Part shown: positions 25,292 to 61,926 of the stretch, one piece after another
Numbering within the stretch: position 1 is the first letter of the stretch
Layout of the letters: every line of letters starts with the position of its first letter
Source of the DNA: Nitrospinaceae bacterium
Lineage (GTDB): Bacteria > Nitrospinota > Nitrospinia > Nitrospinales > Nitrospinaceae
Direction: 5' to 3'
Length of the DNA: 64,000 nt
Assembly: GCA_965223665.1 (NCBI GenBank)
Contig: OZ245011.1
Location: 1,536,001 to 1,600,000, forward strand
Notes under the pieces: model-generated
What the model was told of the DNA's origin: nothing
The model's database searches: none
What the model saw: the letters and a program-made list of their open reading frames with translations, nothing else
Made by a program: the position numbers and the translations under genes

Positions 25292-26575
25292 ATGAAATCC
25301 ACCTTCGTTATTCGCTCAAATATTTCAGCCATTCTGATTGCAGTCATTGTCGGGATTTTAATTCCTTCCATTTCAACTCAAGCGTCCCCTGAAAAACTGG
25401 TAACCAAGATTAATAATATAGCCTTACTGAAGGCTGCATTTAGGGGCGACGAGGCAAACGTAAAAACTCTGCTGGCAAGGGGCGCCAATGTAAATTTTCA
25501 AAAAAAAGATGATGGGGTGACTGCTTTAATTGTGGCGTCCGAGAAGGGACATTTGTCTGTTGTAAAAAGACTGTTGGCTAATGGAGCCGATGTCAACCTT
25601 CCTGCTTATAATGGGTTTTCAGCGTTGACTCAGGCAAGTTTTAAAGGCCACGAATCTGTAGTACTAGAACTTTTAGAGAAAGGAGCGAAGGTCAATCAAC
25701 AGGCAGACAATGGTGCGACCTCCTTGATTCTGGCATCCGAGAAAGGACATTTTTCCGCTGTAAAGGCCCTGCTTAATCAAGGGGCAAAAGTGGACCTTCA
25801 AGCTAATGATGGAGCAACTGCATTATATGTCGCTTCTCAAAATGGCTATGAACTAATAGCGAAGAAATTACTCGAAAAGAACGCTGATATCAATATCCCA
25901 ATCAAAAACGGAGGAATCCCTTTAATAGTAGCATCACTTTATGGCCATGAGCCAGTAGTGAAGTTGCTCCTGGAGAATAACGCCAAAGTAAATCATCAAG
26001 CTCAAAACGGCGAAACCGCGATATTTTTTGCATCTGAAAATGGACACGCTCAAATAGTGAAGGAATTGATTGCATACGGAGCAGACGTTGATCTAAAAAG
26101 GAAAGATGGAGGGACGGCGTTGATTTGGGCATCATTGAATGGGCACGATGTTGTAGTGAATACATTACTGGAAAATGGTGCCGAAGTTGATCTAACAGAT
26201 GAAGATGGTTCAACGGCCCTTTTAGGGGCGTCGTTACCTGGGCATGAGGCGGTAGTTAAAGCGCTATTGGCAAAAGGTGCTAATGTTAATCATCAAGATA
26301 ATATTGGCGAAACTGCTTTGCTCTGGGCGTCGGGTAATGGACATGAGCCAGTGATAAAAGCCTTACTTAATAAGGGAGCAGATGTTAATCACCAGAACAA
26401 AAAGGGCCAAACCGCTTTAATGGAAGCATCGCGGAGAGGACAGGTGGTGACGGTGCAGACATTGTTAGCAGCGGGCGCCGACGTCAATGCCAAAAACTCT
26501 AACGGAGAATCCGCTCTCAGTTTGGCGAAAACTAAAGCTATCGCCCAACTGCTAAAGGCGACAGGAGCAAAGTGA
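25292..26575 (+). CDS. secreted ankyrin-repeat protein (about 11 repeats)
   Basis: Signal peptide; repeated G.TAL..AS..GH..VV..LL..GADVN. Confidence 0.95.
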   Translation: MKSTFVIRSNISAILIAVIVGILIPSISTQASPEKLVTKINNIALLKAAFRGDEANVKTLLARGANVNFQKKDDGVTALIVASEKGHLSVVKRLLANGADVNLPAYNGFSALTQASFKGHESVVLELLEKGAKVNQQADNGATSLILASEKGHFSAVKALLNQGAKVDLQANDGATALYVASQNGYELIAKKLLEKNADINIPIKNGGIPLIVASLYGHEPVVKLLLENNAKVNHQAQNGETAIFFASENGHAQIVKELIAYGADVDLKRKDGGTALIWASLNGHDVVVNTLLENGAEVDLTDEDGSTALLGASLPGHEAVVKALLAKGANVNHQDNIGETALLWASGNGHEPVIKALLNKGADVNHQNKKGQTALMEASRRGQVVTVQTLLAAGADVNAKNSNGESALSLAKTKAIAQLLKATGAK

Positions 26576-32000: not shown

Positions 32001-32146
32001 GTATCCAGAGACAACAGATCGCCTAACCCGCCGGTTTTCGAACACCCGGCCAGCACCGCTCCACCCGCACTTGCCCAGCCCACCGTTTTCAGGAATTCTC
32101 GCCGGTCCATCTTGTTTCCATTTTTTTTGTTATTTGAAGTTTTCAT
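29021..32146 (-). CDS. ttrA: DMSO-reductase-family molybdopterin catalytic subunit, tetrathionate reductase TtrA-like
   Basis: Tat signal RREFLK plus LAGC lipobox, CLNCHIRC..CPKG Fe-S motif, HTSICG putative Cys ligand, 1041 aa, B-C-A gene order. Confidence 0.75.
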   Translation of the reverse strand: MKTSNNKKNGNKMDRREFLKTVGWASAGGAVLAGCSKTGGLGDLLSLDTTQTPQPYDLAQPENVIYSVCLNCHIRCPMKTKFQDGVLVKVDGNPYAAKTFLPNIPFESKPVESARVDGHLCPKGQAGVQTYYDPYRIRQTLKRVGPRGSNEWQTISFDQAIHEIVEGGDLFGEGPVTGLKEIFVMKDKETARALTEDVKAIRKGTLTVEQFQKKHADHLDLLIDPKHPDLGPKNNQFCFMAGRIQKGRADFSQRWTYEGFGSINWMDHTSICGRAHWSASERTTWDPVKKKGKVLLKPDFLNSEFVIFWGTGAFEANFGCTAIANLVTEAIEKGQLKIATIDPRLSHTAAKSWKWVPVKPGQDIALALGMMRWMIENKRYDRKYLENANQAAAQKDQEPTYCDATNLVRLDTRKFLRTEDIGLSPGMRVVMTGKGPQSSEAVDHGILEVDQSIQGIPVKSVFTILRESSQEKSLEEYAQLAGIKVNDIIQLADEFTSHGKKAGIDRYRGAGQTTNGYNAEKAILSLNLLIGNQDWKGGMSDGGGHWNAMGGKAEQPYDMKKGMNPGSLSKFGVPITRERVRYEDSTLIKEHGYPAKRPWYPFTHDVYHEIIPSAEAKYPYPLKCLWIHKGTPAYSSPGGGEFLRILKDPSIIPLVVADDVILGETTVFADYVFPDLSFFERWGMPFDNPQPSVKTSGIRQPAAPPFSEEVEVAGEKMPVSMEAIMLAIADKLGMPGFGRNGFGPDIKLTRPEDFYLKLVANIAMLGTPVPDANAEELDIFLQARRHLPASVFDAEKWKAAVQPDLWNKMVYVLNRGGRFESFEDAYQGDYMNHRFGKLLNFYVEDIATTKNSITGKHFEGLPRYEPALHSDGSLVQDPEDQFPFSLITYKSITGGNSRTNSQSWCHVSVNPENQVLINSQDAKQRGWKNGDRVKLVSATNPKGTWPLEPYAADLPVESSLQVVEGLRPGVIAVSFHYGHWAYGARDVKIDNETIPGDPDRGLGTCPNAVMRLDAYNTATCLTDPIGGSSSFSNTQINLIKV

Positions 32147-32164
32147 ACAATACCCAATCGCTGA

Positions 32165-33316
32165 TCATTCATTTAAAGACCCGACCGAAATCCATTTGCC
32201 AAAAAACTCGTTTAACACCATGAAAGCTAAAACGAACAGCGCCAACAGGCCCAGGACCACCACGGTTTCCAAAAGGTTGGGCCACATTCCGGAAGCAGCA
32301 AGCCGGCTGCCATGATAAATGGTTTCCATGTCATTCAGCTTTGGCACCGCTGAAGCAGGAATCAATGCATACATTCGGCTGACAAAAACTCCCCCCAGAA
32401 CCGACCCCCCTGCCAGGGAAAAATAGGTGGGCCATTGATTAGGTTTTCCCAGCCCTCCTAAAACCATGGGAATAAAAATGAGAAGTCCGACCTGCCCTGC
32501 TAAGAACATCCAACTATGATCACCCCATAAAATGTGAGAGGTCGATTCATTCCTGATCATTTCCTCGAAAACAAAAACGATATAGATCCCCACCGCGAGT
32601 AAAAGAGACAGGATTAAGTTTCGCGCCACTTTTAAATAATTTGCACTGTGTTTGCTATAGGCGCTGTAAAGAACCAGTCCCATGGCCAACCCGGAAATAA
32701 TTGCCAATCCCCAATAGACAGCAGGTGTCAATTCCCTACTCCATAAATGCTGTGGAAAATAATTGGTGAACACATTGCCCAGGTCCCAGTTCACCCAAAG
32801 AACTAAAATGAATCCCGTCAACCCGACCTGTCGAATGAATTTTTTATTTTCAGAAGTCTCTGATTTCTGCAACAAGTACAGGGCGGACACAATCGCAATC
32901 ATAAGTAAGGGATAAAGCCACGCCAACCGTGCCATGGCCGTGTCCCAATTCGGATACAGATACAGGTTCAATACCTTGAAGGGCTGCCCCAGCTCCAGCC
33001 AGATAAACAGGATTCCCCCTGCCAGGCTGATCAGAGAAACCAGCAGTGCGGGACCTGACACTTCCTTAAATTCTTTTAATCCAAATACCGTGTACAGGCT
33101 GGAGAACAAAACACAGCCTCCGGAAACACCGACCAGAAAACTATAAACCACCACCCAGATCCCCCACGGTTCAAACGCCGTCATCGAAGTCACTTTCAAT
33201 CCTTCCGTCATCCTCCAGAAGGCGCCAACAATCCCCATGAACGAAAGCAGGATTAACACGGAATAACTTAACAATCGTGACGGGCTCATTTCCTTCATGA
33301 CATCCTCATTTATCAT
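32165..33316 (-). CDS. ttrC: NrfD/PsrC-family membrane anchor (TtrC-like)
   Basis: [19 protein letters not shown] motif, multiple TM. Confidence 0.8.
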
Positions 33317-34208
33317 TCAGATAATAGACTCTCGGCTCAGTTCCCAAATCTTCTTTCAATCGCATGACCCGAGGATTTTCAATTAGGGTCGAAACCAGAC
33401 TCTTTGGATTCTCCTTGGGACCGGGACCGAAATAAGTCGCGCCGCCGATGCAAGTCGTCACGCAAGAGGGAAGCATTCCTTCTTCCAGTCGATGCGTACA
33501 AAAATGACACTTGCGAACCACACCGATGGGAGGCTGTCCCGAAGTTCTCTCCCAATGACTGCTGTATTCAGGAGACGGAGAGGTTTCATAAGGCTGTGGT
33601 GAATCAGGACTGTTTGCCGTGTGAGACTCACCAAAATCAAAAGTTCTGGCACCATAAGGGCACGCCTTGATACAGGCACGGCAGCCGATGCACCGGTTGT
33701 AGTCGATCGGCACAATACCATCCTCCTGCTTGTGAGTCGCATTTGTGGGACAAACCGGAACACAGGGCGGATTGTCGCATTGCATGCAGGGACGGGGAAG
33801 AAAATGCCGAGTCACCTGAGGATAGGTTCCCACTTCTTCTTCGAAAACGGGACGGTACACGACACCCGGAGGAAGATGGTTTTCCGCAACACAGGCCACG
33901 GTGCAGGCATGGCAACCAACACACTTTAATAAATCAATCACCATGACCCAGTCCCGGTCTTCCTCCGGTTTTCGCATGGCTTCCTGTAATTCTTTCTGCA
34001 TTCTCAAGAGACGGTTCTCTTTAAACTCAGGAAGATCCGGAAAATTCGGTTGAGAACGAGGTTTAGAAGATTTTGCCAGAACCAGGTTAGGGATCCACAA
34101 CTTCCAGGTGGAAAGAACTCCTAATATCCAGGCACCCAGTTTAAGAAACCCGCGTCTGGAAGGAAAAAATAGATTCTTTCTATTTTTTAATTTTAGCGAG
34201 TTAGACAT
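33306..34208 (-). CDS. ttrB: 4Fe-4S dicluster subunit (TtrB/NrfC-like) with Tat signal
   Basis: [46 protein letters not shown] motifs. Confidence 0.85.
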
Positions 34209-34489
34209 CGGCCTGCCCCTTCCCAAAGTGTTTTAAGCCTTAAAAGGGTGGTTCTTTTAAACCCATTTCCTATATATATAGATACATATATCGGTATTAA
34301 ATTCCCCTTTATTTTGATTTGGGTTTCTAAGCCAAACCCTCGAAGAAGCCCTATAATTCGTAAAATAATTCCTTCCATAAATGATGGTATAATTTGCGCA
34401 AACCCCTAAAATATTCTGATGCAAAGCAGTCATAAATTCACTCAAACTAAACCCTCTTTGCCTCAGAAAAAAATTTTGGTAAGCGATAG

Positions 34490-37400
34490 ATGACAGGACG
34501 CACTTTGAAAATCGGCTTAATATTTCTATTCCTTTTATCGTTCGTGTTCCGTCCTCCTGCCTTTGGATTTATAGATATTTTTGGTGATTCCGGGGATATC
34601 AATGAACAGGTGAAAAAACGGTCCGACCGAATTGAAACCCGGCTCAAGGCACTCAATTTTTATAAACGCAGTAAAGATCCCTTAATCGACCCGACCATAA
34701 ATAATAGTTCTATCTATGGCACTTTATATTACGGCTATCCGCGGGAACAGGTGACCAAAAGGCGGAACGGCGGCATCATAAAGGTTTCTCGTCCGCAGTG
34801 GAGAAGTAAACGTGATCCGCAGGGAAAAACAATCTGGAATCGTGAAGGGAAGTTCACCACCAGTTACCGCGTAAACCAGATTCGCATTAGTGAGCAGGAC
34901 CGATCCATCCGCAAAAACGCTGCTCAGCTTTTAGCCAATTACAAGCAGACGAATCGACACTCCCTGGGGAAAACAAGAATTGCCGTCCAATGGAAACTGG
35001 TCGACAAAAAAGTGATCAGAAATGATTTTCACTATGTCTTTCGACCTGTGGCAAAAGAGAAAGTGTATGGAGGAAAACCGGGAGGTATGCTCATCGTTTA
35101 CCAGGACGGTGAAACCACACAATGGATAGGGAAAGCAGATAATTATTCTCTGGGAATTGAGTTAAAAAATCCTCCTCCAAAATATATCGTTGCCTATTTC
35201 GATCTGGACGACAAGCGATCCGTTATAGTGAAAAGCGGAGGAATGAATTTACATCGTGACCTCCACGTTCCGGAAATTCCCACTCCCGACGAAGCGGTGA
35301 TCGATGAGGTCATGGAAGTTCTGGCTTCTGAATTGTCTACCAAAGCATCCCTGGAAGCTTACGATCTCAATCCCCTGTTTAATAAAGGAAACATTTTAAA
35401 CGAAGAATCCCCGGTGGAGTCGCTTCTTTTAGCCAAGGAGGAACGTGACGGCGCCGCTGCGGATGGGGTCAGCCGTCTCCTGATTCGTGGAGATCACGGT
35501 GGAGAAGGAAAGTCCACCTTTCAAGTTGAAGGAGGCAAAGCGAATGGAACCCTGCAACCGCTCTTCAATGGCGAGGCACAAAAGTCGGGGAACAATTACT
35601 ACACCTTCGCCATCTACACTCCCCCGGAAGAACTGGAAGGTGATTCGCCCGACCTGGTGAAGACCAAACCGATTCGCTATCGAAACATAAAAATCACTTC
35701 CAGGTTCACTCCGGAAAAAGGCGGACCCCGCGCCGTGGAAGCCGACAAGGAAATCAGTCTGGTGGCGCCACCGGTGGTATTAATGCACGGAACTTACAGC
35801 ACCCCATCCAAAACCTGGGACGACGGTTATTTAAAACTGGAAGCGGTGACGCCGGAGGAACGTGCCGCGGCTAAAAGTGCCATAAGAAGTCAAACAGACA
35901 TCGGATTTATGGGCGATAATCTCAACATAGATAATTCAACTCTCAAAGCGGCCATCAAAAAAAGGAGAGAACAAGCCTTACAACTCATCGGATCCGACAA
36001 AACCATGAAAGCGGCTCTCGAAGAAAAAGGGTTCATAGTTTTTATGGTGGACTACCAGTTGACCAACGGCCTCGGATTGATCCAGGAAGCACGGCGACCC
36101 AGCCACTTTAAACACAACCGTATGGTCTTATGGGATGAATTCTGGGACAAAGCCAGGCACAGCAAATCGGGAAAACCCAATGGCATCAAAAAGGCTCTGG
36201 AATACTTTCGTGAAAATCTGGATGTCGCAGCCACCCAGGCCGATGTAGTCGGACACAGCATGGGCGGAGTGCTTCCGCGAGTGTACGCTTCCGACGCTTA
36301 CACTAAAGAAGATGCGCGGTACCCCAAGTCGAAACTCACCAACCTTTCCACGCAGGGTTATAGACGGCCGGACAATTATAAAGCGGGAGACATTAATCGC
36401 TTGATCTCTATTTGCAGCACGCATTACGGCAGTGACCTTTCCCACGTCATGGCCGTGCTAAGAAGTGAGGATCTGGCAAACGAAGACCTGGGTATTTTTG
36501 AGCGCATGCGAAAAGAGAAATTAAACTTTGGCTTGAAGTGGTATGCAGGACTAAAGTCCGGAGCGGCCAACGACCAGGTCCCGGAAAGTCATGCATTAAA
36601 ACTGATTGGTCCCACAAAGGTTCCCTCACATGCCGTCGCCTGTGTGGCCAGAGTTCCGGACATCAAGAATCATTTTCACGGCGAGTATCTGCATCAGAAT
36701 GTGGAGCTGATGTATCAACTCTTCAAGTATCCCGGTTTGTTGGAAAAAATATTAAAACTGAAAGACCGGGAGCAGGAAGCGGAATATCTACTGAAGGCCA
36801 TAGAAGAAATCGGTTGGTATACAGAAAAAAATAATCTGATCGATCTGCACAAAATCGATGAATGGGTCAAGGCCAATCAATTTCGTTTCAGCGTTTTTGG
36901 ATTTACCAGAAACGATGCCGTGGTGCGCGTGACCAGTCAATGGGGCGGCATGCCGCCACAGTACCGTTCGACCATCAATGGTCTGGTTCATGGTTACGCT
37001 CCTTTGTATCCGGAAATTCAGGAAAAAGTGGTCGATCTGTTGACCGGTCCATTAACCAATTTTTCTATCAAAGGGTTTTCCAAAGCAGGTGAGCGCCTGC
37101 TGAATAAACCTCCGAACTTTCCTTTGTTGAGCGAGGACCGGTTGGAAGCGATCCGCCGATCCAACATTGTTCCCCGGCACGCATTAGCGATTTCGCAGGT
37201 GGCAAAGGCGCGTAACGAAATCATAATCATTCGCCCCGTCAATCCCGACTCCACGCATTTAATCGCTAAGGGTGCCACCACCAAAAGCATGCATGTTAAA
37301 GGTAAGAGTTCCAACTGGGGACCGCAGAAAGGTTACATCGCCGTGGATCAGGCGTTCAGCAAACTGGCGGAAGAAGGTGATAAAAAAATTAACAAGTACA

Positions 37401-39523
37401 ACTGCGATGTGCGAGACAGCCTGAAAAAGAAAAAAGCCTACCGCAAAGCATTAACTTTTACAGAAGGAGAGACGGAGTATCAGGTCCGTATTTTGAAAAA
37501 TAAGATGGCAGGTCGAAAAAGGCCTTTAGTCGTACTCCGGGACTCGGCGGGAAACTATAAATCCATTAACGATGAAAGTCTTCCAGCCTCAATCAGCGAT
37601 GACAACACACAACCTCTGGAAGTTCTCACGGACACCACCAAGAACGAATACATGACGGCCGATTACGATTTCCTTGCCATCGGAACCAAAAAAGAAAGCG
37701 GACCTGCTGAACTGCATCCTGAAATGGGCAGTGTAACCCCTCTGCAAAAGCGACTTATCGTTTACCTGAACGCGGTGGTCCAGGACAAAGGCGGGTACAC
37801 CGGCGGCAACGTGGTCTGGCACGGACCGGAAAATCAATTCAGTCTATCTCCGGGAGTCGACTACCCCAACACTGCCTTCGAACCCGACGGCGATATCATC
37901 ACCATTGATGAAGGTCCACCGGGAAAAACTCATATGTATGCGAAACGGTATTTTCGAAAAAAAATTGAGGACGGGTGGAACCTGGCCGCCAATCCCCGCT
38001 GGAACTGGGAAGGCAAAGGTACGCCTCATTACCGGGAATTCACCGTAGAACGGGGTTGGCCGGACGAAGACCCTCCAAAAGAAAAACAGGAAGAGGATTT
38101 AACCAAACAATGCAAACCGCTTCCTCCCTGCAAAGTGGCTTTAGCTGATGGCGAAGAAGGACAGCGGACCATTGCGGACCGCGTGAAGTCGGTCAAAGAA
38201 ATGGGAGAAAAAGTCCTTGCACTGAAGAGAAAACTCGACGAAGCCAAAAACAATAAAAGTGAAGTGACCACTTTAGTCACGCTGGGAGTGGCCCAGCAGT
38301 CCCAGTTGGATCAAGCCATCACCCGGTTGCAGCAGGCCGAGGCCGCGTTGAAAAAATCACAACAGTTATTAAAAGTCGGCAAAGAAGCTTTACAAAAAGC
38401 GCGGCAGGCCGCTAGTGGCGAAGAAGGAGGCCAAGCCGATGAAACCGGTTCCGGCCTCGGCTGTTCCTGGGAACCGCCCGATCCTGACGATGGCGACGGG
38501 GACGACCCCAATGATTCCGGTCTGGATGGTTTAGACGAATTGATGGCCAGTCTCAGAGAAACCGATGCGACCCAACCGTTTTCTGAGGACGAGCGCCGCA
38601 TCATGGGCGTTTCTTTACTTAATGAATATTGGCAATCCATCCGGGGAGAAGTTGACCTCAGTCGACTGGACTCTGCAACTCGAGAGCAAATTGCAATTAA
38701 CCAGGCAGCGAATCCACCCAGACCCGTCACTGATAATCTTTCCCCGGAGCAACTCACCGCATTGGTTCAATTGACTCGTGGCATTTTACGAACAAAAATC
38801 GACGATGACATTAAGTACCCGGAAGATCCGGATCGAAACATGGTAAGATTTGAACCACTGTATAAAGATACCAATGAAAGAAAAATGGAGTTGGCCAATG
38901 AGGTGGCGGCCTATCATCTGGGACGGTTACTGGATGTGAACGCACCTTTCTCTGAATTAGTTCGAGACAACCGAGATCCCAGAAAAATTTTAGGCGTGAT
39001 GACGCGCTGGGCCGGCGACGGTAAAAATGAAAAAAGTCTAAGCAAGGACGACACCGACGGTGACCTTAAATCCGGAGAGAACCGCGGACAGTATATTCGC
39101 GATTTGATTTTATCTGCTATTTTAGGAGATCAGGATCGCAAGTTTAATAATTATGTTATTTATAATGGCAAACTTTACTCCATTGACCGCGGGAGTGGCA
39201 CCCCGATAGAACCCACAGCCACCATCGCTTCAACCATGCGCGGTTGGCTGCGAGTTGGCAGAAGATATGAAAATCGTATACGGCCGGGTGAAATTCAAAG
39301 AGACTCTCGCCCGGTGAAGTTGCGGGAAGCGGTCAAGGTGACGGCTCGGGATTTTCAGACCGAATATGAAAAGGTAAAAGGAAAATTAACCAGAGAGAGA
39401 ATACAAAAAGTGGTCGAGGAAGCTTATCTGGACCAATCGGCTGAAACCCAACGGGCCATTGTAGAAACCATGGTCGGTCGCGCTCAGGTATTGGAATCGG
39501 TATTCAAAAATGTTCTACCATAA
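34490..39523 (+). CDS. secreted multi-effector protein: alpha/beta-hydrolase (lipase) + edema-factor/ExoY-like class II nucleotidyl cyclase + HipA-like kinase
   Basis: Signal peptide; LMHGT..GHSMGG..NDAVV..HG; RPVN..TKSMHVKGKSSNWGP..GYIAVDQ..TADYD..VVWHG; NEVAAYHLG..DQDRKFNN..IDRG. Confidence 0.85.
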   Translation: MTGRTLKIGLIFLFLLSFVFRPPAFGFIDIFGDSGDINEQVKKRSDRIETRLKALNFYKRSKDPLIDPTINNSSIYGTLYYGYPREQVTKRRNGGIIKVSRPQWRSKRDPQGKTIWNREGKFTTSYRVNQIRISEQDRSIRKNAAQLLANYKQTNRHSLGKTRIAVQWKLVDKKVIRNDFHYVFRPVAKEKVYGGKPGGMLIVYQDGETTQWIGKADNYSLGIELKNPPPKYIVAYFDLDDKRSVIVKSGGMNLHRDLHVPEIPTPDEAVIDEVMEVLASELSTKASLEAYDLNPLFNKGNILNEESPVESLLLAKEERDGAAADGVSRLLIRGDHGGEGKSTFQVEGGKANGTLQPLFNGEAQKSGNNYYTFAIYTPPEELEGDSPDLVKTKPIRYRNIKITSRFTPEKGGPRAVEADKEISLVAPPVVLMHGTYSTPSKTWDDGYLKLEAVTPEERAAAKSAIRSQTDIGFMGDNLNIDNSTLKAAIKKRREQALQLIGSDKTMKAALEEKGFIVFMVDYQLTNGLGLIQEARRPSHFKHNRMVLWDEFWDKARHSKSGKPNGIKKALEYFRENLDVAATQADVVGHSMGGVLPRVYASDAYTKEDARYPKSKLTNLSTQGYRRPDNYKAGDINRLISICSTHYGSDLSHVMAVLRSEDLANEDLGIFERMRKEKLNFGLKWYAGLKSGAANDQVPESHALKLIGPTKVPSHAVACVARVPDIKNHFHGEYLHQNVELMYQLFKYPGLLEKILKLKDREQEAEYLLKAIEEIGWYTEKNNLIDLHKIDEWVKANQFRFSVFGFTRNDAVVRVTSQWGGMPPQYRSTINGLVHGYAPLYPEIQEKVVDLLTGPLTNFSIKGFSKAGERLLNKPPNFPLLSEDRLEAIRRSNIVPRHALAISQVAKARNEIIIIRPVNPDSTHLIAKGATTKSMHVKGKSSNWGPQKGYIAVDQAFSKLAEEGDKKINKYNCDVRDSLKKKKAYRKALTFTEGETEYQVRILKNKMAGRKRPLVVLRDSAGNYKSINDESLPASISDDNTQPLEVLTDTTKNEYMTADYDFLAIGTKKESGPAELHPEMGSVTPLQKRLIVYLNAVVQDKGGYTGGNVVWHGPENQFSLSPGVDYPNTAFEPDGDIITIDEGPPGKTHMYAKRYFRKKIEDGWNLAANPRWNWEGKGTPHYREFTVERGWPDEDPPKEKQEEDLTKQCKPLPPCKVALADGEEGQRTIADRVKSVKEMGEKVLALKRKLDEAKNNKSEVTTLVTLGVAQQSQLDQAITRLQQAEAALKKSQQLLKVGKEALQKARQAASGEEGGQADETGSGLGCSWEPPDPDDGDGDDPNDSGLDGLDELMASLRETDATQPFSEDERRIMGVSLLNEYWQSIRGEVDLSRLDSATREQIAINQAANPPRPVTDNLSPEQLTALVQLTRGILRTKIDDDIKYPEDPDRNMVRFEPLYKDTNERKMELANEVAAYHLGRLLDVNAPFSELVRDNRDPRKILGVMTRWAGDGKNEKSLSKDDTDGDLKSGENRGQYIRDLILSAILGDQDRKFNNYVIYNGKLYSIDRGSGTPIEPTATIASTMRGWLRVGRRYENRIRPGEIQRDSRPVKLREAVKVTARDFQTEYEKVKGKLTRERIQKVVEEAYLDQSAETQRAIVETMVGRAQVLESVFKNVLP

Positions 39524-39547: not shown

Positions 39548-42253
39548 ATGGGAGAAAAAATGAAGAGAGATGTCAAACATTGGCGGTGGTATGTATTGGG
39601 CTGGAGTTTTATTTTTTTATGTGCGCAATTCCCCGGTGCCTCTGTGGACGCGAAAGAGTTGAGTGGGGATGCAAAAAAGATTCTTGAAAATCCTTCCGGA
39701 AATGTAACGCCCTCTGTGCAACAGGAATTGATTGTAGCCTGGAAGCAAGCGACCAAACCCATTCTGGAAGATTTCCTGCCGGGTCTGGGTCATAAATTTT
39801 CATTTCGTGTCAAAAAGCAAACTATTGATGACAAACCCTATCTCTATTTTTCAGCCACTGGAAAAAAAAGAGGCGCCGGGAAGAGCCCCGCTCTAAAAGT
39901 CACCCTGGAAATTTTTCACAAAGGAGGCGATGCCCCTTTAGAGCATAAATACGGTCTCTGGTTTCTGCCTTTGGACATGGGTCCGGAAAAAATTGTGCGG
40001 AAAGATTTTTCTGCAGATCGCGCCGCGTTCAGCACCATGATGGGTGAAGGTATTGAAGCTTTCTATTGGCAAAAAGGGGAAGCCTATGTGGAAGTGCAAA
40101 GTGAAAAAAATGTTCAGTCCGTCGCTGAAAAATTGAATTCTGAACTTAAAGAAAAACAGTTTTATGACATACTCTCGTTTTTAAATAAAACAGAAGGATC
40201 TTCTCTCCCTCCTGTCGTGGCTTCGGTCACTCCCGCTCCCGCAGAACCCGAATCCGCTCCAGTTGAACCTGAACCCACTCCCGCAGAACCCGAATCCGCT
40301 CCAGTTGAACCTGATCCCACTCCGGTTGAACCTGAACCGGCTCCGGAAGATCCTATTACCATAGTCACTCCTTTTGCAGCGCCTCCTTCAAAAAGCAAAT
40401 TGAGCCAGTGGGTTTATAAAGGCTGCTACAAAGATAATGGCCGCCGTGACTTATCCGGATTTCAAATCAGTGAACCGGACATGACCATTGAAAAATGTGT
40501 GCAGCATTGCAGTTCCAGAAACTTCTCCGTTGCTGGAACTCAGTTTGGCACCTGGTGCTTTTGCGGTAACGACTTTGGTCAATATGGTCAGGCAGACAAT
40601 TGCAATATGAATTGTGCAGGAAACTCGTATCAGATTTGCGGAGGCGGTTGGGCAAACAGCATTTATGCTTCCAATTCCACATCCACAACCAAAACTCCAC
40701 CCGCAATTTTCGAAAGCGATGATTCAAAACTTCTATTGCCAAAAGAAAAGATCAAAGGCCTGTACGCCGCCGCAAAAAAAGGTGACCTTCAAAAGGTGAA
40801 AGAATTAATTGCCATCGGCGCAGACCTGGAAGACCCGGGAAAGGATAATGAAACTCCTATCATCGCTGCAACGGATAATGGAAACGCTGAAGTCGTCGAA
40901 GCTCTAATTGCTGCGGGGGCCAATTTAGACGTGAAGGTCGAATACGATTTTCCTTTGCTGGGAATCGCGGTGGATAATGGATACGATCAAATTGTAAAGT
41001 TGCTCGTTGAAGCGGGAGCAAAAATCGAATTTAAAGATGATAAAGGAGCGACGTTTCTGGCGGCAGCCACTTATGGAAACCATGTAGAAGTTTTAAGGTA
41101 CCTGATTCGCCAGGGCGCTGATGTGAATAGCACGAAGCTGTATCGCAAAGATAAAGTTTTAGACGGCACTCCCTTAATGGTTGCGGCCGAAGCAGGCAAA
41201 ATTGTTCCTACCTTAATTTTACTGCAAGCGGGAACCGATCCGAATTATCAGGGAGACAAAGGAAATTCAGCGCTCATGCTTGCCATTGAGCGGGGAAAAA
41301 AGGAAGTGGTAGCGGCACTATTAGCCGCAGGCGCCGACCCTAAAGCGAAAAATGCTGAAGGTAAAAGCGTTCTCGAAATAGCAAGGGACAGAGATAAAAG
41401 TAAAATCATAAAGATGATCGAAGGCGTTTTGGGAATTCCATCCAAAAAAGAAACGGAACCTTTGGCCAAGCCTAATGCGAAAGTGGCTCCCTTCGTGGAC
41501 ACCCGATGGATCGGCGAGTACACCTCCACTCACGGAAAAAAAATGACCTTTCAACCAGAACCCTATACTGACGTTATTGGTCGATACCAATCAGACAATG
41601 GACGGATTGTAGGGAAAGTCGTTGGCCGCAAACTCGATGGCTATTGGGTGGAGCGATGGACCAAAAAGAAATGCAAAACCCAAAAGGATAATAGTTATTA
41701 TTGGGGATGGTTCCGCGTTACCTTTAACGAAGATTTTTCGGCCTACTCCGGGACCTGGGCGTATTGCGAGGACAGTAAAACGGGCGGCAAGTGGGAAGGC
41801 AAAAAACTGAGCTCTGCAATAGGTTCAAAACCGTCGACAAAAACAACGAAACTTCCGGTAGAACCCGAAGAAAAAATAATGAGACCCCCGCCCCTGCCCG
41901 AGAAAAAAGTTTCTCCTTTGATTAATAAACCATGGACCGGCGAATGGACTTCTACTTATGGAAAAAAAATCACCTTTCAACCGGAACCGGAAACTGAAAT
42001 CATCGGTCGGTATAATTCGGATAATGGACGGATTGTAGGGATTGTGATTGGCCATTCCCTGAATGGCTTCTGGGTGGAAAACAGTTCCAATAAGAAATGC
42101 AAAACCAAAAAGGACAACAGTTATTACTGGGGTTGGTTCCGAGTGACTTTTAATCCGGATTACACCACCTACTCAGGAAACTGGGCTTACTGCAACGACG
42201 TTAAAAAGCGCGGCAAGTGGGAAGGCAAACGGCTGGGCATGATAAACAAATGA
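39548..42253 (+). CDS. secreted protein with Pro/Glu linker, WSC domain, ankyrin repeats and a duplicated ~100-aa C-terminal beta domain
   Basis: YKGCYKD..MTIEKC..C..AGTQFG.WCFCG..C...C.G...CGG WSC pattern; about 7 ankyrin repeats; two similar W.GE.TST.GK..YYWGWFRVTF..W.GK units. Confidence 0.85.
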   Translation: MGEKMKRDVKHWRWYVLGWSFIFLCAQFPGASVDAKELSGDAKKILENPSGNVTPSVQQELIVAWKQATKPILEDFLPGLGHKFSFRVKKQTIDDKPYLYFSATGKKRGAGKSPALKVTLEIFHKGGDAPLEHKYGLWFLPLDMGPEKIVRKDFSADRAAFSTMMGEGIEAFYWQKGEAYVEVQSEKNVQSVAEKLNSELKEKQFYDILSFLNKTEGSSLPPVVASVTPAPAEPESAPVEPEPTPAEPESAPVEPDPTPVEPEPAPEDPITIVTPFAAPPSKSKLSQWVYKGCYKDNGRRDLSGFQISEPDMTIEKCVQHCSSRNFSVAGTQFGTWCFCGNDFGQYGQADNCNMNCAGNSYQICGGGWANSIYASNSTSTTKTPPAIFESDDSKLLLPKEKIKGLYAAAKKGDLQKVKELIAIGADLEDPGKDNETPIIAATDNGNAEVVEALIAAGANLDVKVEYDFPLLGIAVDNGYDQIVKLLVEAGAKIEFKDDKGATFLAAATYGNHVEVLRYLIRQGADVNSTKLYRKDKVLDGTPLMVAAEAGKIVPTLILLQAGTDPNYQGDKGNSALMLAIERGKKEVVAALLAAGADPKAKNAEGKSVLEIARDRDKSKIIKMIEGVLGIPSKKETEPLAKPNAKVAPFVDTRWIGEYTSTHGKKMTFQPEPYTDVIGRYQSDNGRIVGKVVGRKLDGYWVERWTKKKCKTQKDNSYYWGWFRVTFNEDFSAYSGTWAYCEDSKTGGKWEGKKLSSAIGSKPSTKTTKLPVEPEEKIMRPPPLPEKKVSPLINKPWTGEWTSTYGKKITFQPEPETEIIGRYNSDNGRIVGIVIGHSLNGFWVENSSNKKCKTKKDNSYYWGWFRVTFNPDYTTYSGNWAYCNDVKKRGKWEGKRLGMINK
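40238..40321 (+). repeat. in-frame 42-bp tandem duplication (PAEPESAPVEP[E/D]PT x2)
   Basis: Visible in both DNA and protein. Confidence 0.85.
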
Positions 42254-53600: not shown

Positions 53601-53640
53601 AAAGGTAGCGCACATGAATAAAGAATTGCCAAAATCATGG

Positions 53641-53665
53641 TACCTATATATACTATATATTGGTA
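53641..53665. promoter_or_regulatory. inverted repeat upstream of parDE, putative antitoxin operator
   Basis: TACCTATATA-N5-TATATTGGTA. Confidence 0.5.
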
Positions 53666-53687
53666 TATTACTTTCAGGGAGAGACGC

Positions 53688-53942
53688 ATGGCGAAACATA
53701 CGAGTATTGCTTTGGGCGATCATTTTAACGAGTTTATCGAGGATCAGTTAGCTCGTGGACGTTACGGATCTGCCAGTGAAATGGTTCGGGCTGGTTTGCG
53801 GTTATTGGAAGAGCATGAATCTAAAGTTGAAGCGTTACGTTCAGCGCTGGTCGAAGGAGAAGAAAGCGGACCCGCTAAAAGTTTTGATGCCGATCAATTC
53901 TTGTCTTCGGTGAAGAAAAAGAAAAGAAAAATAAATGGGTGA
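53688..53942 (+). CDS. parD: type II antitoxin ParD (RHH)
   Basis: TSIALGDHF..GRYGSASEMVRAGLRLLEE..LVEGEESG. Confidence 0.93.
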   Translation: MAKHTSIALGDHFNEFIEDQLARGRYGSASEMVRAGLRLLEEHESKVEALRSALVEGEESGPAKSFDADQFLSSVKKKKRKING

Positions 53943-54225
53943 TTATACCCTTCGGCCTAAAGCCAGGCAGGATTTAGAGAAAATCTGGTTTTACACATAT
54001 GAAAACTGGGGCGAAGATCAAGCCGATAGCTATATCTATGATATCGACAAAATGTTTCAAGAGTTGGCAGCCCATCCACAAAAAGGCCTATCCTGTGATG
54101 AAATTAGAGAAGGATACCGCAAACAATTTGTAGGAAAACATGTTATTTTCTATCGATTTTCTAAAAAGGGAATTGAAATCGTCCGCATCCTTCATCAAAG
54201 TATGGATATAGAGCGGCATTTATAA
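53935..54225 (+). CDS. parE: type II toxin, ParE/RelE family
   Basis: A.QDLE.IW.Y..WG..QA..Y..HVIFYR..IVRILHQSMD; overlaps parD. Confidence 0.93.
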   Translation: MGDYTLRPKARQDLEKIWFYTYENWGEDQADSYIYDIDKMFQELAAHPQKGLSCDEIREGYRKQFVGKHVIFYRFSKKGIEIVRILHQSMDIERHL

Positions 54226-56393: not shown

Positions 56394-56796
56394 TATTATT
56401 TCTAAACTCTTTCAGAGTTTTTGGAGTAATAAATTTTTTTCAGGCGTTCCTATATTAATATTATAAACATTACATTCCCAGATAAAACCTTAATTAACAC
56501 TCAGTCTCTCTCCAAAACTATCCACACCCTCAATCTTGAGATAGAGTCGTTGTAAAAGGGGAACTTAAACGGGCAACGCGATAAGTTCTTTTTGAATAAA
56601 AATAAAAGTTTTCAGAAAAAATTAATTTCGGAATATGCCATATTTAGGGTAATTGTGGACCAACCGGTCTTCAAATTTAAATACGTTTTCTCGAAGAGAT
56701 CAGACGTGCAGTAAAAACATTTTCAAACAAGTTCTGTATCTAAACAATTCGAGGAAAATAAATTACCGAGGATTTCTTTGGACAGAAGGTCTTCAT

Positions 56797-56835
56797 AAAA
56801 AAACAAGGGTTACTGCGGTAGACGTAACCCTTGTT
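56797..56835 (-). terminator. intrinsic terminator of repeat gene 1
   Basis: AACAAGGGTTAC-10-GTAACCCTTGTT plus U-tract on the minus strand. Confidence 0.85.
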
Positions 56836-56884
56836 CGGAGAGGAGAGGCTGGAGAATCCGAATCCCCAGTCTCTTTGAGGCCCA

Positions 56885-57589
56885 TCATGAAATGCGGCTC
56901 AATTGATTCCACATACCATGCTCAGATCCGTCTTCTTCAAACAGGTCATTGGTTCGAATTCCGTTGCTGGCAAACTCATTCCACATGCCATGCTCAGAAC
57001 CGTCATCTTCAAATAAATCACCTTTGGTGATTCCGTTATTGGCAAACTCATTCCACATACCGTGCTCGGAACCATCTTCTTCAAACAAGTCACCGGTTTT
57101 AATTCCGTTGCTGGCAAACTCATTCCACATACCATGTTCGGATCCGTCTTCTTCAAATAAATCACCTTTGGTGATTCCGTTGCTGGCGAACTGATTCCAC
57201 ATACCATGTTCGGAACCGTCTTCTTCAAACAGGTCACCGGTTTTAATTCCGTTGCTGGCATATTGATTCCACATGCCGTGTTCGGATCCATCATCTTCAA
57301 ACAAATCTTCGGTGGTTCCTACAGGAACCCCAGTTTTATTCCACATCCCGTGCTCAGAACCGTCTTCTTCGAATAAATCACCAGAGGTGATTTCGTTGCT
57401 GGCATATTGATTCCACATGCCGTGTTCGGATCCATCATCTTCAAAATGATCACCAGTGGTTTCTCCGATAAGTGAGTTGCTTTTGATGTTTAAATTCTTC
57501 TCAATTGCAGGAGCAGCAAAACCGGGTCCTGCTAATAATAAAGTAGTTAATATCCAACTTGTCAGGGTAGTTTTTATTGAGTTATTCAT
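56885..57589 (-). CDS. secreted tandem-repeat protein, 8 x 24-aa FE[D/E]DGSEHGMWN repeats
   Basis: GGAGG RBS, signal peptide ending GFA, 72-nt in-frame repeats, own terminator. Confidence 0.9.
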   Translation of the reverse strand: MNNSIKTTLTSWILTTLLLAGPGFAAPAIEKNLNIKSNSLIGETTGDHFEDDGSEHGMWNQYASNEITSGDLFEEDGSEHGMWNKTGVPVGTTEDLFEDDGSEHGMWNQYASNGIKTGDLFEEDGSEHGMWNQFASNGITKGDLFEEDGSEHGMWNEFASNGIKTGDLFEEDGSEHGMWNEFANNGITKGDLFEDDGSEHGMWNEFASNGIRTNDLFEEDGSEHGMWNQLSRIS

Positions 57590-58049
57590 GATGTGCCTCC
57601 ATCAAATAGTTTATTAATTGTCTAGATATAATATTATACATTTATATAAATTTATCAATAGAAAACCTAGAAAAATTTCAAGATTCTGACAAAATTTTAA
57701 TTGTTTGAAATTAAATGATTTATCGCGTTTTATCCCCAAATTCCCCAGAAATTTTTAAAAAAATAACACAAATTCCTCGATATTTCTCAACAAATATTCC
57801 CAAAATATCTAACTTATAAATTATACAAAAATATTAGAAATGTATAAGTAATTTAATCTGGCTTTTTATCTAAAACCGGAGATTCTTTCCGAAGATAGAG
57901 GGGGTCGAATTGATTCTGTTCGGTAACGCGCCCAATTCTTGGAAGAGGAAAAGGGCTTGTGCCCAGCGGGCCTCGGCCAGGAATCACATGAGTTTCCTTA
58001 ATTGGCAGGTATTCGAAATTCAGAGAAAAAAATTGGAAGAGATAAGACG

Positions 58050-58086
58050 AAAACAAGGGTTACCGCGTTAGCCGTAACCCTTGTTT
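58050..58086 (-). terminator. intrinsic terminator of repeat gene 2
   Basis: Same stem as 56802-56835 with a diverged loop. Confidence 0.8.
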
Positions 58087-58134
58087 GGAAGGAGGAGGCT
58101 GGGTAATCCGAATCCCCAGACTCTTTGAGGCCCA

Positions 58135-59121
58135 TCATGAAATGCGGCTCAGTTGATTCCACATTCCGTGCTCAGATCCATCTTCTTCAAAAAGTTCACC
58201 TTTGGTGATACCGTTGCTGGCAAACTGATTCCACATACCGTGTTCAGATCCGTCATCTTCAAACAAATCTTCGGTGGTTCCTACAGGAACCCCAACTTTA
58301 TTCCACATACCGTGTTCGGAACCGTCTTCTTCAAACAGGTCACCGGTTTTAATTCCGTTGCTGGCAAACTGATTCCACATACCGTGTTCAGATCCGTCAT
58401 CTTCAAACAAATCTTCGGTGGTTCCTACAGGAACCCCAACTTTATTCCACATACCGTGTTCGGAACCGTCCTCTTCAAACAGGTCACCGGTTTTAATTCG
58501 GTTACTGGCGAACTGATTCCACATACCGTGTTCAGATCCGTCATCTTCAAACAAATCTTCGGTGGTTCCTACAGGAACCCCAACTTTATTCCACATACCG
58601 TGTTCGGAACCGTCTTCTTCAAACAGGTCACCGGTTTTAATTCGGTTACTGGCGAACTGATTCCACATACCATGTTCGGAACCGTCATCTTCAAACAAAT
58701 CTTCGGTGGTTCCTACAGGAACCCCAACTTTATTCCACATACCGTGTTCGGAACCGTCTTCTTCAAAATATTCATCCATGATAATTTCGTTACGCGCAAC
58801 CTGATTCCACATGCCGTGTTCGGATCCGTCATCTTCAAACAAATCTTCGGTGGTTCCTACAGGAACCCCAACTTTATTCCACATACCGTGTTCGGAACCG
58901 TCTTCTTCAAAATATTCATCCATGATAATTTCGTTACGCGCAACCTGATTCCACATGCCGTGTTCGGATCCGTCATCTTCAAATCGGTCGCCAGTGGGTT
59001 CCATGATTGGGGGGTCGCCATTAATATTCAAATTTTGATTTTGAGCGGCAAAGCCAACCCCTGAAAAAATTAATAATGCGGTTAACAAACTGAGTTGGGT
59101 TAATCGAATCGCTGTATTCAT
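58135..59121 (-). CDS. secreted tandem-repeat protein, 12 x 24-aa FE[D/E]DGSEHGMWN repeats (paralog)
   Basis: AGGAG RBS, signal peptide ending GFA, same C-terminus QLSRIS. Confidence 0.9.
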   Translation of the reverse strand: MNTAIRLTQLSLLTALLIFSGVGFAAQNQNLNINGDPPIMEPTGDRFEDDGSEHGMWNQVARNEIIMDEYFEEDGSEHGMWNKVGVPVGTTEDLFEDDGSEHGMWNQVARNEIIMDEYFEEDGSEHGMWNKVGVPVGTTEDLFEDDGSEHGMWNQFASNRIKTGDLFEEDGSEHGMWNKVGVPVGTTEDLFEDDGSEHGMWNQFASNRIKTGDLFEEDGSEHGMWNKVGVPVGTTEDLFEDDGSEHGMWNQFASNGIKTGDLFEEDGSEHGMWNKVGVPVGTTEDLFEDDGSEHGMWNQFASNGITKGELFEEDGSEHGMWNQLSRIS

Positions 59122-59586
59122 GATGTGTCTCCTTTATTGACTTTCCATCCTGAGCAGTGGATGGATTTTTAATGGTTTTGTTGGGTAATCTGTATTACCC
59201 CGTTTTCTTGTTATTTTAGAAGCACACGAATCGATTAAGATACTTTATAGTTTCAAACAAATAGTTTAATTTAATTAAATCAAAAACCATCCCCTAAACC
59301 CGCCGGATCCTGCCCGGCACGCGGGCTAACGAATTGTTTTTAAAAAGAATCACCTGATGTATTGTTTGACAACCCACCCAAATCCCTATATCCTTTGTCC
59401 CATAAATCCCATTTCTAATTAATGAATACGAGTGAGATATTCGCTCTCAATCGTAAACTTTCTGTACCAAGGAGCGCATATTCTGAATCCCAAAAACGAT
59501 CAATCCATTCCTGCATTCTAAAATTCAGAATGTAGAAACATTTTTAAATGTGGACGATGAGATCAAGAGAAAAGGAGGGTTGTGTC

Positions 59587-61926
59587 ATGTTAACCAATAA
59601 ATTGAAGGCACTATTATTTACCGGTATTTTGACGATTTTGATTCCTGCTGTCTCTTTTGCCACCCCACCCGATAGACCCATCAGCATCACACCCCAAATA
59701 TTAGAAGATAACCAGATTATAAAATCCGATGAAAAGTATTTTTATTTGCCGGTCCGAGTTTCTACCTTAAACGTGAAACGCGGTGACGTTATATTAAACG
59801 TTATCGTGTATTCCCCCGATCAGCGCAAGCAACGGATCATGGAGAGTATTTCCACCAGCCTGGAAGAAAGAGATGAACAAAAGGAAGGCACCGTGGTGCA
59901 AATTCCCAGATTGCAGAAAGACGGAATCTACCGTATAGAAATCGCCGCGGGGGATCGCAAAGGAGCAATTTATGATCGCGTGGCTCTCTATCAAGTGGTC
60001 GAGAAAAAGGAAGCGCGCATCTACACGCAACGCCAGTGGCGGGACCATAGAAAAAACCTCCGGTTCAATAAATACGAAAAGGCGAAAACGGTTCGGGTGT
60101 TTTCCGGCAACCTCAAGAAGCTTACGGAAGAAGAACTTGAGGAAACCAAGGTCACGGTTATTCGTGACCCGCGTAAAGTCCTGCGGGTGAAAGCGGACAA
60201 TAACCTGGGACTGGACGCCAAGTTCGTTCTGGATTCCAGCGCCAAGGCCTGGCGGGATCGCGATCCGGTAACGTATCGAGGCAGAATTGTTTTCACCGAT
60301 TTTGAAGGAACGGTCAGACCCCTCGTCAATGGAGGCATTTATCTTTACGACGACGACACCTTTGGCGATGAGTTTCTGGGTTCCGTCACCACCAACGGCA
60401 ATGGAGAGTTCAGCTTCAGCGTCAACAACGACGACGGCTTTTTACAGAATGGTCGTGACCTGTACATCAAACTCAAATTAAGAAACACGCGATGGCGGGT
60501 TCATGACGGCGGAGACTATGAATGGGCAACCAGTGTCAGCGACGACCTCAATGAAGGACAGGTGGTCGACATTGGAACCGTCACTCCGGACGACGATATG
60601 GAAGCGGTTCAGATTTTTTCTTTTATGGATCGCGCCTGGCAGCATGTGGTCACTGTGGGTGGGCGAGACCCGGGTTTTGTCAATGTAGACTACCCCGGCG
60701 GCGGGGACTTTTTTGATGGAGAGGTCAACTTATCCGCTTCCACCAACCGCGCCCCGGACATTGCGATTCATGAGTATGGACATTTCCTGCTGGAGTCGGC
60801 GTATCCGGGGGGAGACCCTTCTCCCGGCGGGGCGCATAACTTTGGTGAAATGAATCAGGATCCCCGACTCTCCTGGAGCGAAGGCTGGGCCACGGCATTC
60901 ATGCTGAGTCTGTGCAATGACGGTCAGTACAACTGGGACGAAGGCACCACCGAAGGCGCCGGCGAATGGCCCACCTGTACCAACCAGAACGATTCGGGCG
61001 GCCAGGAGTTGGAACTGTATTCCGGCACGAACCGAACCGGCGAAACTCAGGAAGCCCGCGTGGCCGCTACGTTATTGGACTTAATGGATTCCGACAACGA
61101 TGACAACGGCGGCAATCAGAATCGCGGCAGAGATGACCTGGAAGATGACAACACCGCCAACCGGGTGTCCCTGCACACCATATACAGTGACGTTCTGTGG
61201 GGCGGCGGACACAACAACGCGTTGGAGTTCTGGACTTCCCTGTCGGGAGAAATCAGCGGCAATACCTGGAACGATGCCAATGAAATTTTTCGGTACAACT
61301 GGATGTCCATTTCCGCACCGATCGAAATCAACTGTGTCGCATCGAAAGTGGCTTCCCGGGCGTTCAGGGATTACGACGAAAAAATTAAAAACCTGCGCGC
61401 CTTTCGTAACGAAGGCTTGAAACCTTACGCCATCGGAAGGCAACTGATGCAGTCGTATTACCGTCACAGTCCGGAAATGGCGATCCTGCTGATTAAGGAT
61501 CCCAAAGCCCGGAAGCACGCGGCGCTTTTAATCAGTCATTTTTCGCAACTGGGGAAAGCGTCTCACGATCGAAAGTTGTTTGAGAAAATGGCGGGCAGAG
61601 ACGCTCGGTTCATTCCGGAAAGAATTGGTAAATCCGTGAAAGCGATTTTCAGTTTAATCCAGGAACAAGGCAGTAAAGAACTAAAACGCGATATGATAAA
61701 AGCCCAAAGGCTTTTCCAGAAAGTCGAAAAAATGAAATACTCGGAAGTGATCGACTTCACCAACACGTTGAAGAAAGCCGATGGCATCAGTATCAAACCG
61801 GTCATTCAAGGCAAGTACGCACCAGCCAGCAAAAAAGCCGACTGGAAACTGATCCGCGAAAACCTGCCCAAAGTCATGGGCCGACGCGAGAAAGGAATGA
61901 TTATTAAACGGCAACCAAGAAATTAA
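59587..61926 (+). CDS. secreted zinc metalloprotease (HEYGH..SEG) with CFI-box-CTERM-like domain
   Basis: AGGAGG RBS, signal peptide, IAIHEYGH and WSEGWA; C..S..LRAFRN..L...G..LM..YY..SP.MA. Confidence 0.8.
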   Translation: MLTNKLKALLFTGILTILIPAVSFATPPDRPISITPQILEDNQIIKSDEKYFYLPVRVSTLNVKRGDVILNVIVYSPDQRKQRIMESISTSLEERDEQKEGTVVQIPRLQKDGIYRIEIAAGDRKGAIYDRVALYQVVEKKEARIYTQRQWRDHRKNLRFNKYEKAKTVRVFSGNLKKLTEEELEETKVTVIRDPRKVLRVKADNNLGLDAKFVLDSSAKAWRDRDPVTYRGRIVFTDFEGTVRPLVNGGIYLYDDDTFGDEFLGSVTTNGNGEFSFSVNNDDGFLQNGRDLYIKLKLRNTRWRVHDGGDYEWATSVSDDLNEGQVVDIGTVTPDDDMEAVQIFSFMDRAWQHVVTVGGRDPGFVNVDYPGGGDFFDGEVNLSASTNRAPDIAIHEYGHFLLESAYPGGDPSPGGAHNFGEMNQDPRLSWSEGWATAFMLSLCNDGQYNWDEGTTEGAGEWPTCTNQNDSGGQELELYSGTNRTGETQEARVAATLLDLMDSDNDDNGGNQNRGRDDLEDDNTANRVSLHTIYSDVLWGGGHNNALEFWTSLSGEISGNTWNDANEIFRYNWMSISAPIEINCVASKVASRAFRDYDEKIKNLRAFRNEGLKPYAIGRQLMQSYYRHSPEMAILLIKDPKARKHAALLISHFSQLGKASHDRKLFEKMAGRDARFIPERIGKSVKAIFSLIQEQGSKELKRDMIKAQRLFQKVEKMKYSEVIDFTNTLKKADGISIKPVIQGKYAPASKKADWKLIRENLPKVMGRREKGMIIKRQPRN

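Follow-up and report, generated by a model that had tools for sequence, protein, structure and literature searches.

What purpose would be served by an exported protein made almost entirely of one short peptide motif, repeated again and again with no residue changed? This question is raised by two neighbouring genes, g1 and g2, on the minus strand of a stretch of 64,000 nucleotides (nt) from a Nitrospinaceae bacterium (contig OZ245011.1, positions 1,536,001 to 1,600,000; here called the window, positions being counted from its first letter). In this study, g1 and g2 were shown to be real, separately transcribed paralogous genes with a Sec-like signal, and their products to carry the core DGSEHGMWN eight and twelve times, respectively. 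The interest of the locus lies in the extreme constraint on this nine-residue motif.

All 20 copies of the core are identical, and the core-to-core intervals (7 in g1 and 11 in g2) are without exception 24 amino acids (aa). A degenerate DNA pattern of the core gave 20 matches in the window, all within g1 and g2, while none was obtained in any of 100 shuffles, and no further copy of the motif was found elsewhere in the 64 kb. Spacing and pattern scan thereby confirmed the original prediction, made from the letters alone, of 8 and 12 exact 24-aa units with an invariant core. The 9-aa linkers had been called variable in that prediction; they do differ from one another, but they are not freely variable and fall into a few alternating classes (QFASNGIKT, KVGVPVGTT, QVARNEIIM, EFASNGIKT and others), which recur in L001a, a relative from another genome. 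The DNA repeats with a period of 144 nt (94% matches in g2 and 83% in g1), and thus the true super-unit is 48 aa long, composed of two alternating block-plus-linker types. The higher proportion of period matches in g2 would show that its array includes a younger expansion than that of g1.

At the DNA level, the 20 cores are written in 11 distinct 27-nt sequences, with the glycine of HGM encoded by GGT, GGC, GGG or GGA and the histidine by CAC or CAT, as had been noted before. All six variable columns of the core are third codon positions of the minus-strand frame, and the variable columns of the whole 15-codon block are distributed 2/2/11 over the three codon positions. This third-position variation settled the coding strand and frame, against a long antisense open reading frame (ORF) at 58153..59064. 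Nei-Gojobori proportions of synonymous (pS) and nonsynonymous (pN) differences were calculated for 190 pairs of core units. The values were pS 0.80 and pN 0 within g1 (28 pairs), pS 0.46 and pN 0 within g2 (66 pairs), and pS 0.67 and pN 0 between g1 and g2 (96 pairs); for the whole 15-codon block, pS was 0.46-0.73 and pN 0.05-0.07. Near-saturated synonymous sites together with zero nonsynonymous change in the core indicate that the units are old and that the core peptide is, on this evidence, under strong purifying selection beyond recent slippage, in agreement with the earlier proposal of selection on the peptide. That 20 old copies of the core are without a single amino-acid change shows that every residue of the motif is needed, and hence that its function is testable with a synthetic peptide; the nine-residue site is compact enough for synthesis and direct study. 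The core pS of 0.80 within g1 is at or above the expectation from random synonymous codon choice, and one reading of this divergence would be selection against DNA identity between units, limiting recombination.

The expression signals of the two genes are collected in Table 1. The predicted coordinates and ribosome-binding sites (RBS) were confirmed, and the Sec-type signals ending in GFA were judged by eye (basic n-region, hydrophobic stretch, GFA followed by A). In both proteins the spacer from the signal to the first unit is approximately 17 residues long, and the C-terminus reads ...MWNQLSRIS. Folding revealed a terminator stem of 13 bp behind each gene, and none of 200 shuffles was as stable for either of them; a consensus terminator scan was blind to both terminators, the loops of which lie beyond its limit. 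Approximately 105 nt past the stop codon are common to g1 and g2, and the overall identity of their aligned 3' ends is 82%, which bears out the predicted common 3' untranslated region (UTR) and terminator stem of the two paralogues. The stem, GGGTTAC/GTAACCC, recurs behind L001b, a second relative. The 3' UTRs and last units of the two genes resemble each other far more closely than the 5' halves do, the signal and spacer parts being, by eye, below 50% identity at the protein level; this points to gene conversion or to constraint at the 3' end. Each gene has a terminator of its own and, given the gap of 545 nt between them, probably its own promoter.

Relatives of g1 and g2 are few. A scan of 185,579 species-representative genomes, in which two adjacent motif copies were required while D-G-S and the period were left free, returned a single locus, L001, on a 4.0-Mb contig of a Nitrospinaceae metagenome-assembled genome; the genome of the window itself is evidently outside this collection. 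The protein L001a (235 aa from MNTAIRF) is g2-like, with 8 units, the linker classes and C-terminus of g2, and periods alternating between 24 and 25 aa; its divergence from g2 over mature residues 27-86 was dS ~0.6 and dN ~0.11. L001b (83 aa), just upstream, has a single unit and a tail that differs. When shorter proteins were searched, four such short forms came up: P0001, which is identical to L001b; P0110, which has two units and lies on a 25-kb contig; P0111, from the contig of the window but beyond the window's limits; and P0112, from a 32-kb contig. The tail ...IFP(A/S)PD(E/D)EVEDDGTEWD ends all four of them. Judged from these sequences, the members of the family are either long (8-12 units) or short (1-2 units and then a pseudo-unit), and an acidic run, D-G-S/T-E and W-N/D are common to every unit of every member. 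The family was seen on four contigs, the named organism being Nitrospinaceae, and as far as could be seen it appears to be confined to a few Nitrospinaceae-like genomes.

In the large protein libraries, a profile of the unit returned from 1.84 billion representative proteins only P0001 and a borderline match, P0002 (E 9.5e-4, 5 stretches), an SH3b-like repeat protein whose hairpin the unit resembles. With g1 as query, a near-length word search in a set of 5.8 billion proteins gave no match. Both negatives are weak for long forms, as a control showed: at that library size the same profile gave E 1e-117 to 1e-186 for g1, g2 and L001a. These three proteins were not returned from either library, in which the short forms and P0003, the product of a neighbouring gene of the window's own 4,244,043-nt contig, are present. 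The libraries therefore seem to be without the long repetitive forms, and little can be concluded from them on the frequency of such forms. More generally, highly repetitive proteins may be under-represented in protein libraries, and negative searches for such proteins are weak evidence.

The original prediction had not recognised the motif, and the searches made here bore this out. No Pfam or NCBIfam family with a passing stretch was found for g1, g2, L001a or the short forms; the unit profile retrieved from the PDB three chains at chance level (E 0.37-1.3); and the best ESM Atlas score was 0.81, of low recognition and with no lead. In the literature searched, the motif strings were not found save for one unrelated chance string, and a search on Nitrospina and tandem repeats gave nothing informative. 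A1_Propeptide scored 24.4 bits for g1 against a cut-off of 20.5, yet with 0 passing stretches, and was treated as an artefact because the score sums 9-residue partial matches repeated in every unit. No EF-hand or related Pfam family was found at E <= 1; an EF-hand-type loop has 12 residues and ends in an acidic bidentate residue, whereas here Ala or Gly stands 12 positions past the core Asp. Cell-wall-binding and SH3b-type repeat families likewise gave no Pfam match at E <= 1, the borderline P0002 match being the one link to them. By sequence, then, the family appears to match nothing described; the general type, exported, acidic and disordered with tandem repeats, has analogues.

The mature parts (208 aa and 22 kDa in g1, 302 aa and 32 kDa in g2) consist almost entirely of the 24-aa units. 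They have an isoelectric point of ~4.1 and no Cys, and Asp plus Glu account for 47 of 208 and 71 of 302 residues, respectively. Each unit contains one His, one Met and one Trp, beside which stands a cluster of four carboxylates (E-E/D-D..E). AlphaFold2 (AF2) gave a mean predicted local distance difference test score (pLDDT) of 35.7 from the single sequence and 30.2 when natural register-shifted segments were supplied as a 9-row alignment; neither model had a residue at 70 or more, and the second showed weak periodic strands. The mean hydropathy of 0.39 lies below the charge-dependent boundary of 0.48, on the disordered side, at a net charge of -0.18 per residue. The mature chains are thus predicted to be intrinsically disordered polyanions, or chains that fold only with a ligand, and the unstructured state suggested earlier remains the likely one.

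With these properties in view, the reading favoured here, at a probability of roughly 0.3, is that the proteins are periplasmic disordered polyanions showing one linear motif many times to bind cations. The chain would be exported to the periplasm, possibly beyond, where it would act as a multivalent display of one short linear motif in 8 or 12 copies. The most likely ligand would be a metal cation, either copper, another transition metal, or calcium or magnesium at high capacity, and the protein could serve as a periplasmic buffer, store or hand-over protein. The binding capacity would scale with the number of units (1, 2, 8 or 12 in the family), and it counts for such a function that this number differs across the family while the motif is kept. 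If the motif does bind metal, the family would be a new kind of periplasmic metal buffer, of high capacity and unrelated in sequence, in Nitrospinaceae. Nitrospinaceae are marine nitrite oxidisers, and their metal economy matters for the nitrogen cycle.

Precedents for cation binding by such chains are available. SilE and PcoE are periplasmic disordered His/Met "sponges", the SilE motifs are MxxHxxxxxHxxM and HxxMxxxHxxM, and CusF uses His, Met and Trp (PMC5008109). The present proteins resemble SilE and PcoE in their probable export to the periplasm, in their predicted disorder, in their repeated His/Met motifs and in a capacity that would be set by motif number. They differ from them in having no sequence relationship (Pfam, NCBIfam, PDB), in lying outside any sil/pco-type metal-resistance operon, and in that His is dispensable in some units of relatives. 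Moreover, SilE is described there as having paired HxxM/MxxH-type motifs in helix-forming segments, whereas a single H-G-M is set here in a carboxylate cluster with an invariant Trp. The second precedent is the prion octarepeat PHGGGWGQ, in which one Cu(II) is held by each HGGGW segment through its His and the backbone amides that come next, and each repeat binds one Cu(II) at high occupancy (PMC2663819). Common to both systems are tandem near-invariant repeats, disorder (predicted for g1 and g2), a His-Gly-Trp order and a variable repeat number. Unlike the octarepeat, the H-G-M-W segment is one residue shorter and contains Met, and it is embedded in a strongly acidic 24-aa unit; the prion protein is furthermore a eukaryotic and unrelated protein.

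Several observations weigh against cation binding. H-G-M-W is present in all 20 units of the window, but the core His is replaced by Pro in three of the eight units of L001a, and the tail of all four short forms aligns as a pseudo-unit that lacks His-Gly-Met. The motif is unlike the SilE motifs and one residue shorter than HGGGW. Furthermore, Gly, Trp, Asn and Phe are unchanged although the synonymous sites have diverged to saturation; this invariance exceeds the usual need of simple cation binding, so that a protein partner or an enzyme substrate fits at least as well. The genomic context, scanned with Pfam in 46 ORFs that span all 64 kb of the window (17 + 29) and in the four flanking ORFs on the upstream side of L001, whose locus sequence ends at the L001a stop codon, contains no metal-resistance or metal-uptake gene beside the repeat genes of either locus, and no metal-resistance domain in any of the 46 window ORFs. 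Thus, of the metal sponge suggested in the original prediction, the predicted unstructured and acidic nature stood, while the part assigned to His and Met was weakened by the His-to-Pro units, the tail without HGM and the missing metal gene.

A different function that would fit the invariant residues is that of a multivalent scaffold, in which each unit would dock into a folded periplasmic or surface protein and the chain would cluster or sequester copies of this partner. An invariant motif of 9-15 residues in a disordered chain is typical of peptide-domain recognition. In addition, the universal D-G-S/T-E ... W-N/D of the family recalls in outline the TolB box, DG(S/T)GWSSE, and the short-form tail contains DGTEW. 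The disordered TolB box of colicins A and E9 docks in the TolB beta-propeller (PMC2821528). Both are segments with D-G-S/T-x-W, disordered or predicted to be so, and in the TolB box this segment has a docking role in the periplasm. However, the likeness covers only 4-5 residues, and three residues are inserted between E and W in the main units; with DGSEHGMWN in the main units and DGTEWD in the tail, only the short-form tail fits the spacing. Moreover, the TolB box is described as occurring once per imported toxin domain, whereas up to 12 copies are found here in an endogenous exported protein. A gene for a candidate partner is linked at neither locus (window ORFs and L001 flanks scanned). A predicted complex of a 48-aa double unit with Escherichia coli TolB as a stand-in scored 0.00, which carries no weight either way. 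On balance, docking to a protein partner is considered unlikely, though it deserves to be kept in view.

A similarly low probability is assigned to the proposal that each gene encodes a multi-copy peptide precursor. On this view, cleavage of the exported chain between its units would release 8 or 12 peptides of ~15-24 residues, nearly identical and perhaps carrying modifications at Trp, His or Met, and these would act as a signal or small metallophore. Identical cores in 20 of 20 copies over near-saturated synonymous sites are the pattern expected if each copy yields the same product, and the occurrence of several genes with high copy numbers agrees with this. Many identical cores behind a signal peptide are also found in multi-core ribosomal peptide precursors and bufferins, the latter being peptides made on the ribosome and modified after translation (RiPPs), with a Sec signal. 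Fungal Kex2-processed repeat precursors belong to the multi-core kind, and bufferins are Cys-based. By comparison, g1 and g2 encode no Cys and have no linked maturase or dedicated protease. By Pfam, the 46 window ORFs and the four that flank L001 are all without a radical S-adenosylmethionine, P450, MNIO, YcaO, lanthipeptide or peptide-exporter domain. No cleavage site is common to the linkers, which fall into at least three classes and are conserved from one genome to another. Nor would a precursor that amplifies copies be expected to have conserved short forms of one unit with a tail of their own. Accordingly, the repeated identical cores of the earlier RiPP or multi-core reading were upheld, whereas its support from context was not found. 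If the chain is nevertheless cut into peptides, it would be a rare bacterial Sec-exported multi-copy peptide precursor.

Two neighbouring genes speak for such processing. One, divergently adjacent to g2, encodes a secreted-looking 792-aa protein with an HExxH motif; the other, downstream of g1, encodes a hybrid histidine kinase (PAS-HisKA-HATPase-REC) and is accompanied there by a gene for a small membrane protein and by a ParDE pair. All 10 aligned relatives of the 792-aa protein keep its HExxH motif as HEYGH, and conserved His and Glu follow further downstream, so that the protein looks, from its sequence, like a zinc protease; CFI-box-CTERM came near the threshold with 37.3 bits against a cut-off of 40. 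Its family is far wider than that of the repeats (107 matches at E <= 0.001 among 7999 candidates scored, in many phyla), with all named members called hypothetical, and at L001 the protein is missing from the corresponding place, the divergent neighbours there being NrfH- and NrfA-type cytochromes. The 792-aa protein is therefore not a dedicated partner of the repeat genes. The examination of conserved neighbours, recommended with the original prediction, thus revealed no shared ones on the upstream side, where the neighbours of the window and L001 loci differ.

Two bolder forms of these ideas, taken together, are regarded as doubtful. The first is a Sec-exported bacterial polyprotein cut outside the cytoplasm into up to 12 identical DGSEHGMWN peptides. 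It would require no cytoplasmic maturase and would have its likeness in eukaryotic pheromone and neuropeptide precursors; the peptides (~15-24 residues) would be a diffusible signal, perhaps sensed by the downstream hybrid kinase, or a small copper-binding peptide. The second is an independently arisen octarepeat-like Cu(II) site.

Least probable of the explanations set out here is a folded repeat protein, in which 24-aa beta-hairpins would be stacked as a solenoid or similar, perhaps only with Ca2+ or a glycan, in a structural or carbohydrate/cell-wall-binding role; the strict period, the conserved Gly, Asn and aromatic positions, the weak periodic strands of the second AF2 model and the borderline SH3b-like P0002 match speak for it, but the pLDDT of 30-36 throughout without any residue at 70 or above in either model, the net charge and the hydropathy well on the disordered side, the lack of a Pfam repeat family at E <= 1 with a passing stretch, and the fact that units of folded solenoids usually diverge far more all speak against it. 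The probability left beyond the four readings belongs to something not thought of.

Whatever the chains bind, their expression seems to be controlled. The 160 nt upstream of g2 match the upstream regions of both L001a and L001b almost base for base, and in the alignment with the L001 genes the leader is, by eye, better conserved than the part coding for the signal peptide. Besides two conserved hairpins, a possible pairing over the RBS was seen in the leader region. Covariation was found in 0 of 43 predicted pairs of the g2 leader, and Rfam gave no match in 56400-59700 at E <= 0.1. The region upstream of g1 is unlike that of g2. The upstream region of g2 could be a leader RNA or an operator, and the separate promoters and conserved leader suggest that the expression of g1 and g2 is regulated and separately controlled.

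Table 1. Features of the repeat genes, their neighbours and the related locus L001 (window coordinates unless L001 is named)
Feature	Position	Strand	Description	Basis
Gene g1	56885..57589	-	234-aa exported repeat protein, 8 units of 24 aa	ORF and core spacing
g1 signal-peptide-like N-terminus	57512..57589	-	aa 1-26, ends GPGFA, then A	read from translation
g1 repeat array	56906..57454	-	8 x 72 nt	period 144, 3.8 copies, 83% matches
g1 RBS	57596..57600	-	GGAGG, 6 nt from ATG	read from sequence
g1 3' UTR	56837..56884	-	common to g2	alignment of 3' ends
g1 intrinsic terminator	56794..56836	-	13-bp stem and U run	-18.6 kcal/mol, z -4.7
Gene g2	58135..59121	-	328-aa exported repeat protein, 12 units of 24 aa	ORF, core spacing, orthologue-like relative L001a
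g2 signal-peptide-like N-terminus	59044..59121	-	aa 1-26, ends GVGFA, then A	translation; conserved in relatives
g2 repeat array	58156..58992	-	12 x 72 nt, 144-nt double units	period 144, 5.8 copies, 94% matches
g2 RBS	59128..59133	-	AGGAGA, 6 nt from ATG	sequence; conserved in L001a and L001b
g2 3' UTR	58087..58134	-	common to g1	alignment of 3' ends
g2 intrinsic terminator	58047..58086	-	13-bp stem and U run	-23.0 kcal/mol, z -6.4; stem also in g1, L001b
g2 upstream region and 5' leader	59122..59281	-	hairpins 59183-59200 and 59143-59166	aligned with both L001 upstream regions
Regions aligned with g2 leader	L001 710-870 and 1339-1500	-	upstream of L001 genes	
ParD antitoxin / ParE toxin pair	53637-54225	+	overlapping genes	Pfam scan
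792-aa secreted-looking protein	59548-61926	+	divergent from g2	without Pfam match
Divergent neighbours of L001 repeat pair	L001 1996-3802	+	NrfH-type (NapC/NirT) and NrfA-type (cytochrome c552)	E 2e-143 (cytochrome c552)

The remainder of the window offers some further observations. Of the 29 ORFs scanned in 1-40000, 14 are without a Pfam match, and a 1590-aa ORF at 6057-10829 (+) is likewise unmatched; with so many such ORFs, the region is rich in orphan genes. At 29021-34226 (-) lies an operon for a molybdopterin oxidoreductase of 1041 aa together with an NrfD-type membrane subunit and a 4Fe-4S subunit. An Anthrax_toxA-type domain (PF03497, E 4e-31) was matched in a 1677-aa protein encoded at 34490-39523 (+), which is followed next by a 901-aa protein with ankyrin repeats and WSC at 39548-42253 (+); a further ankyrin protein lies at 25292-26575.

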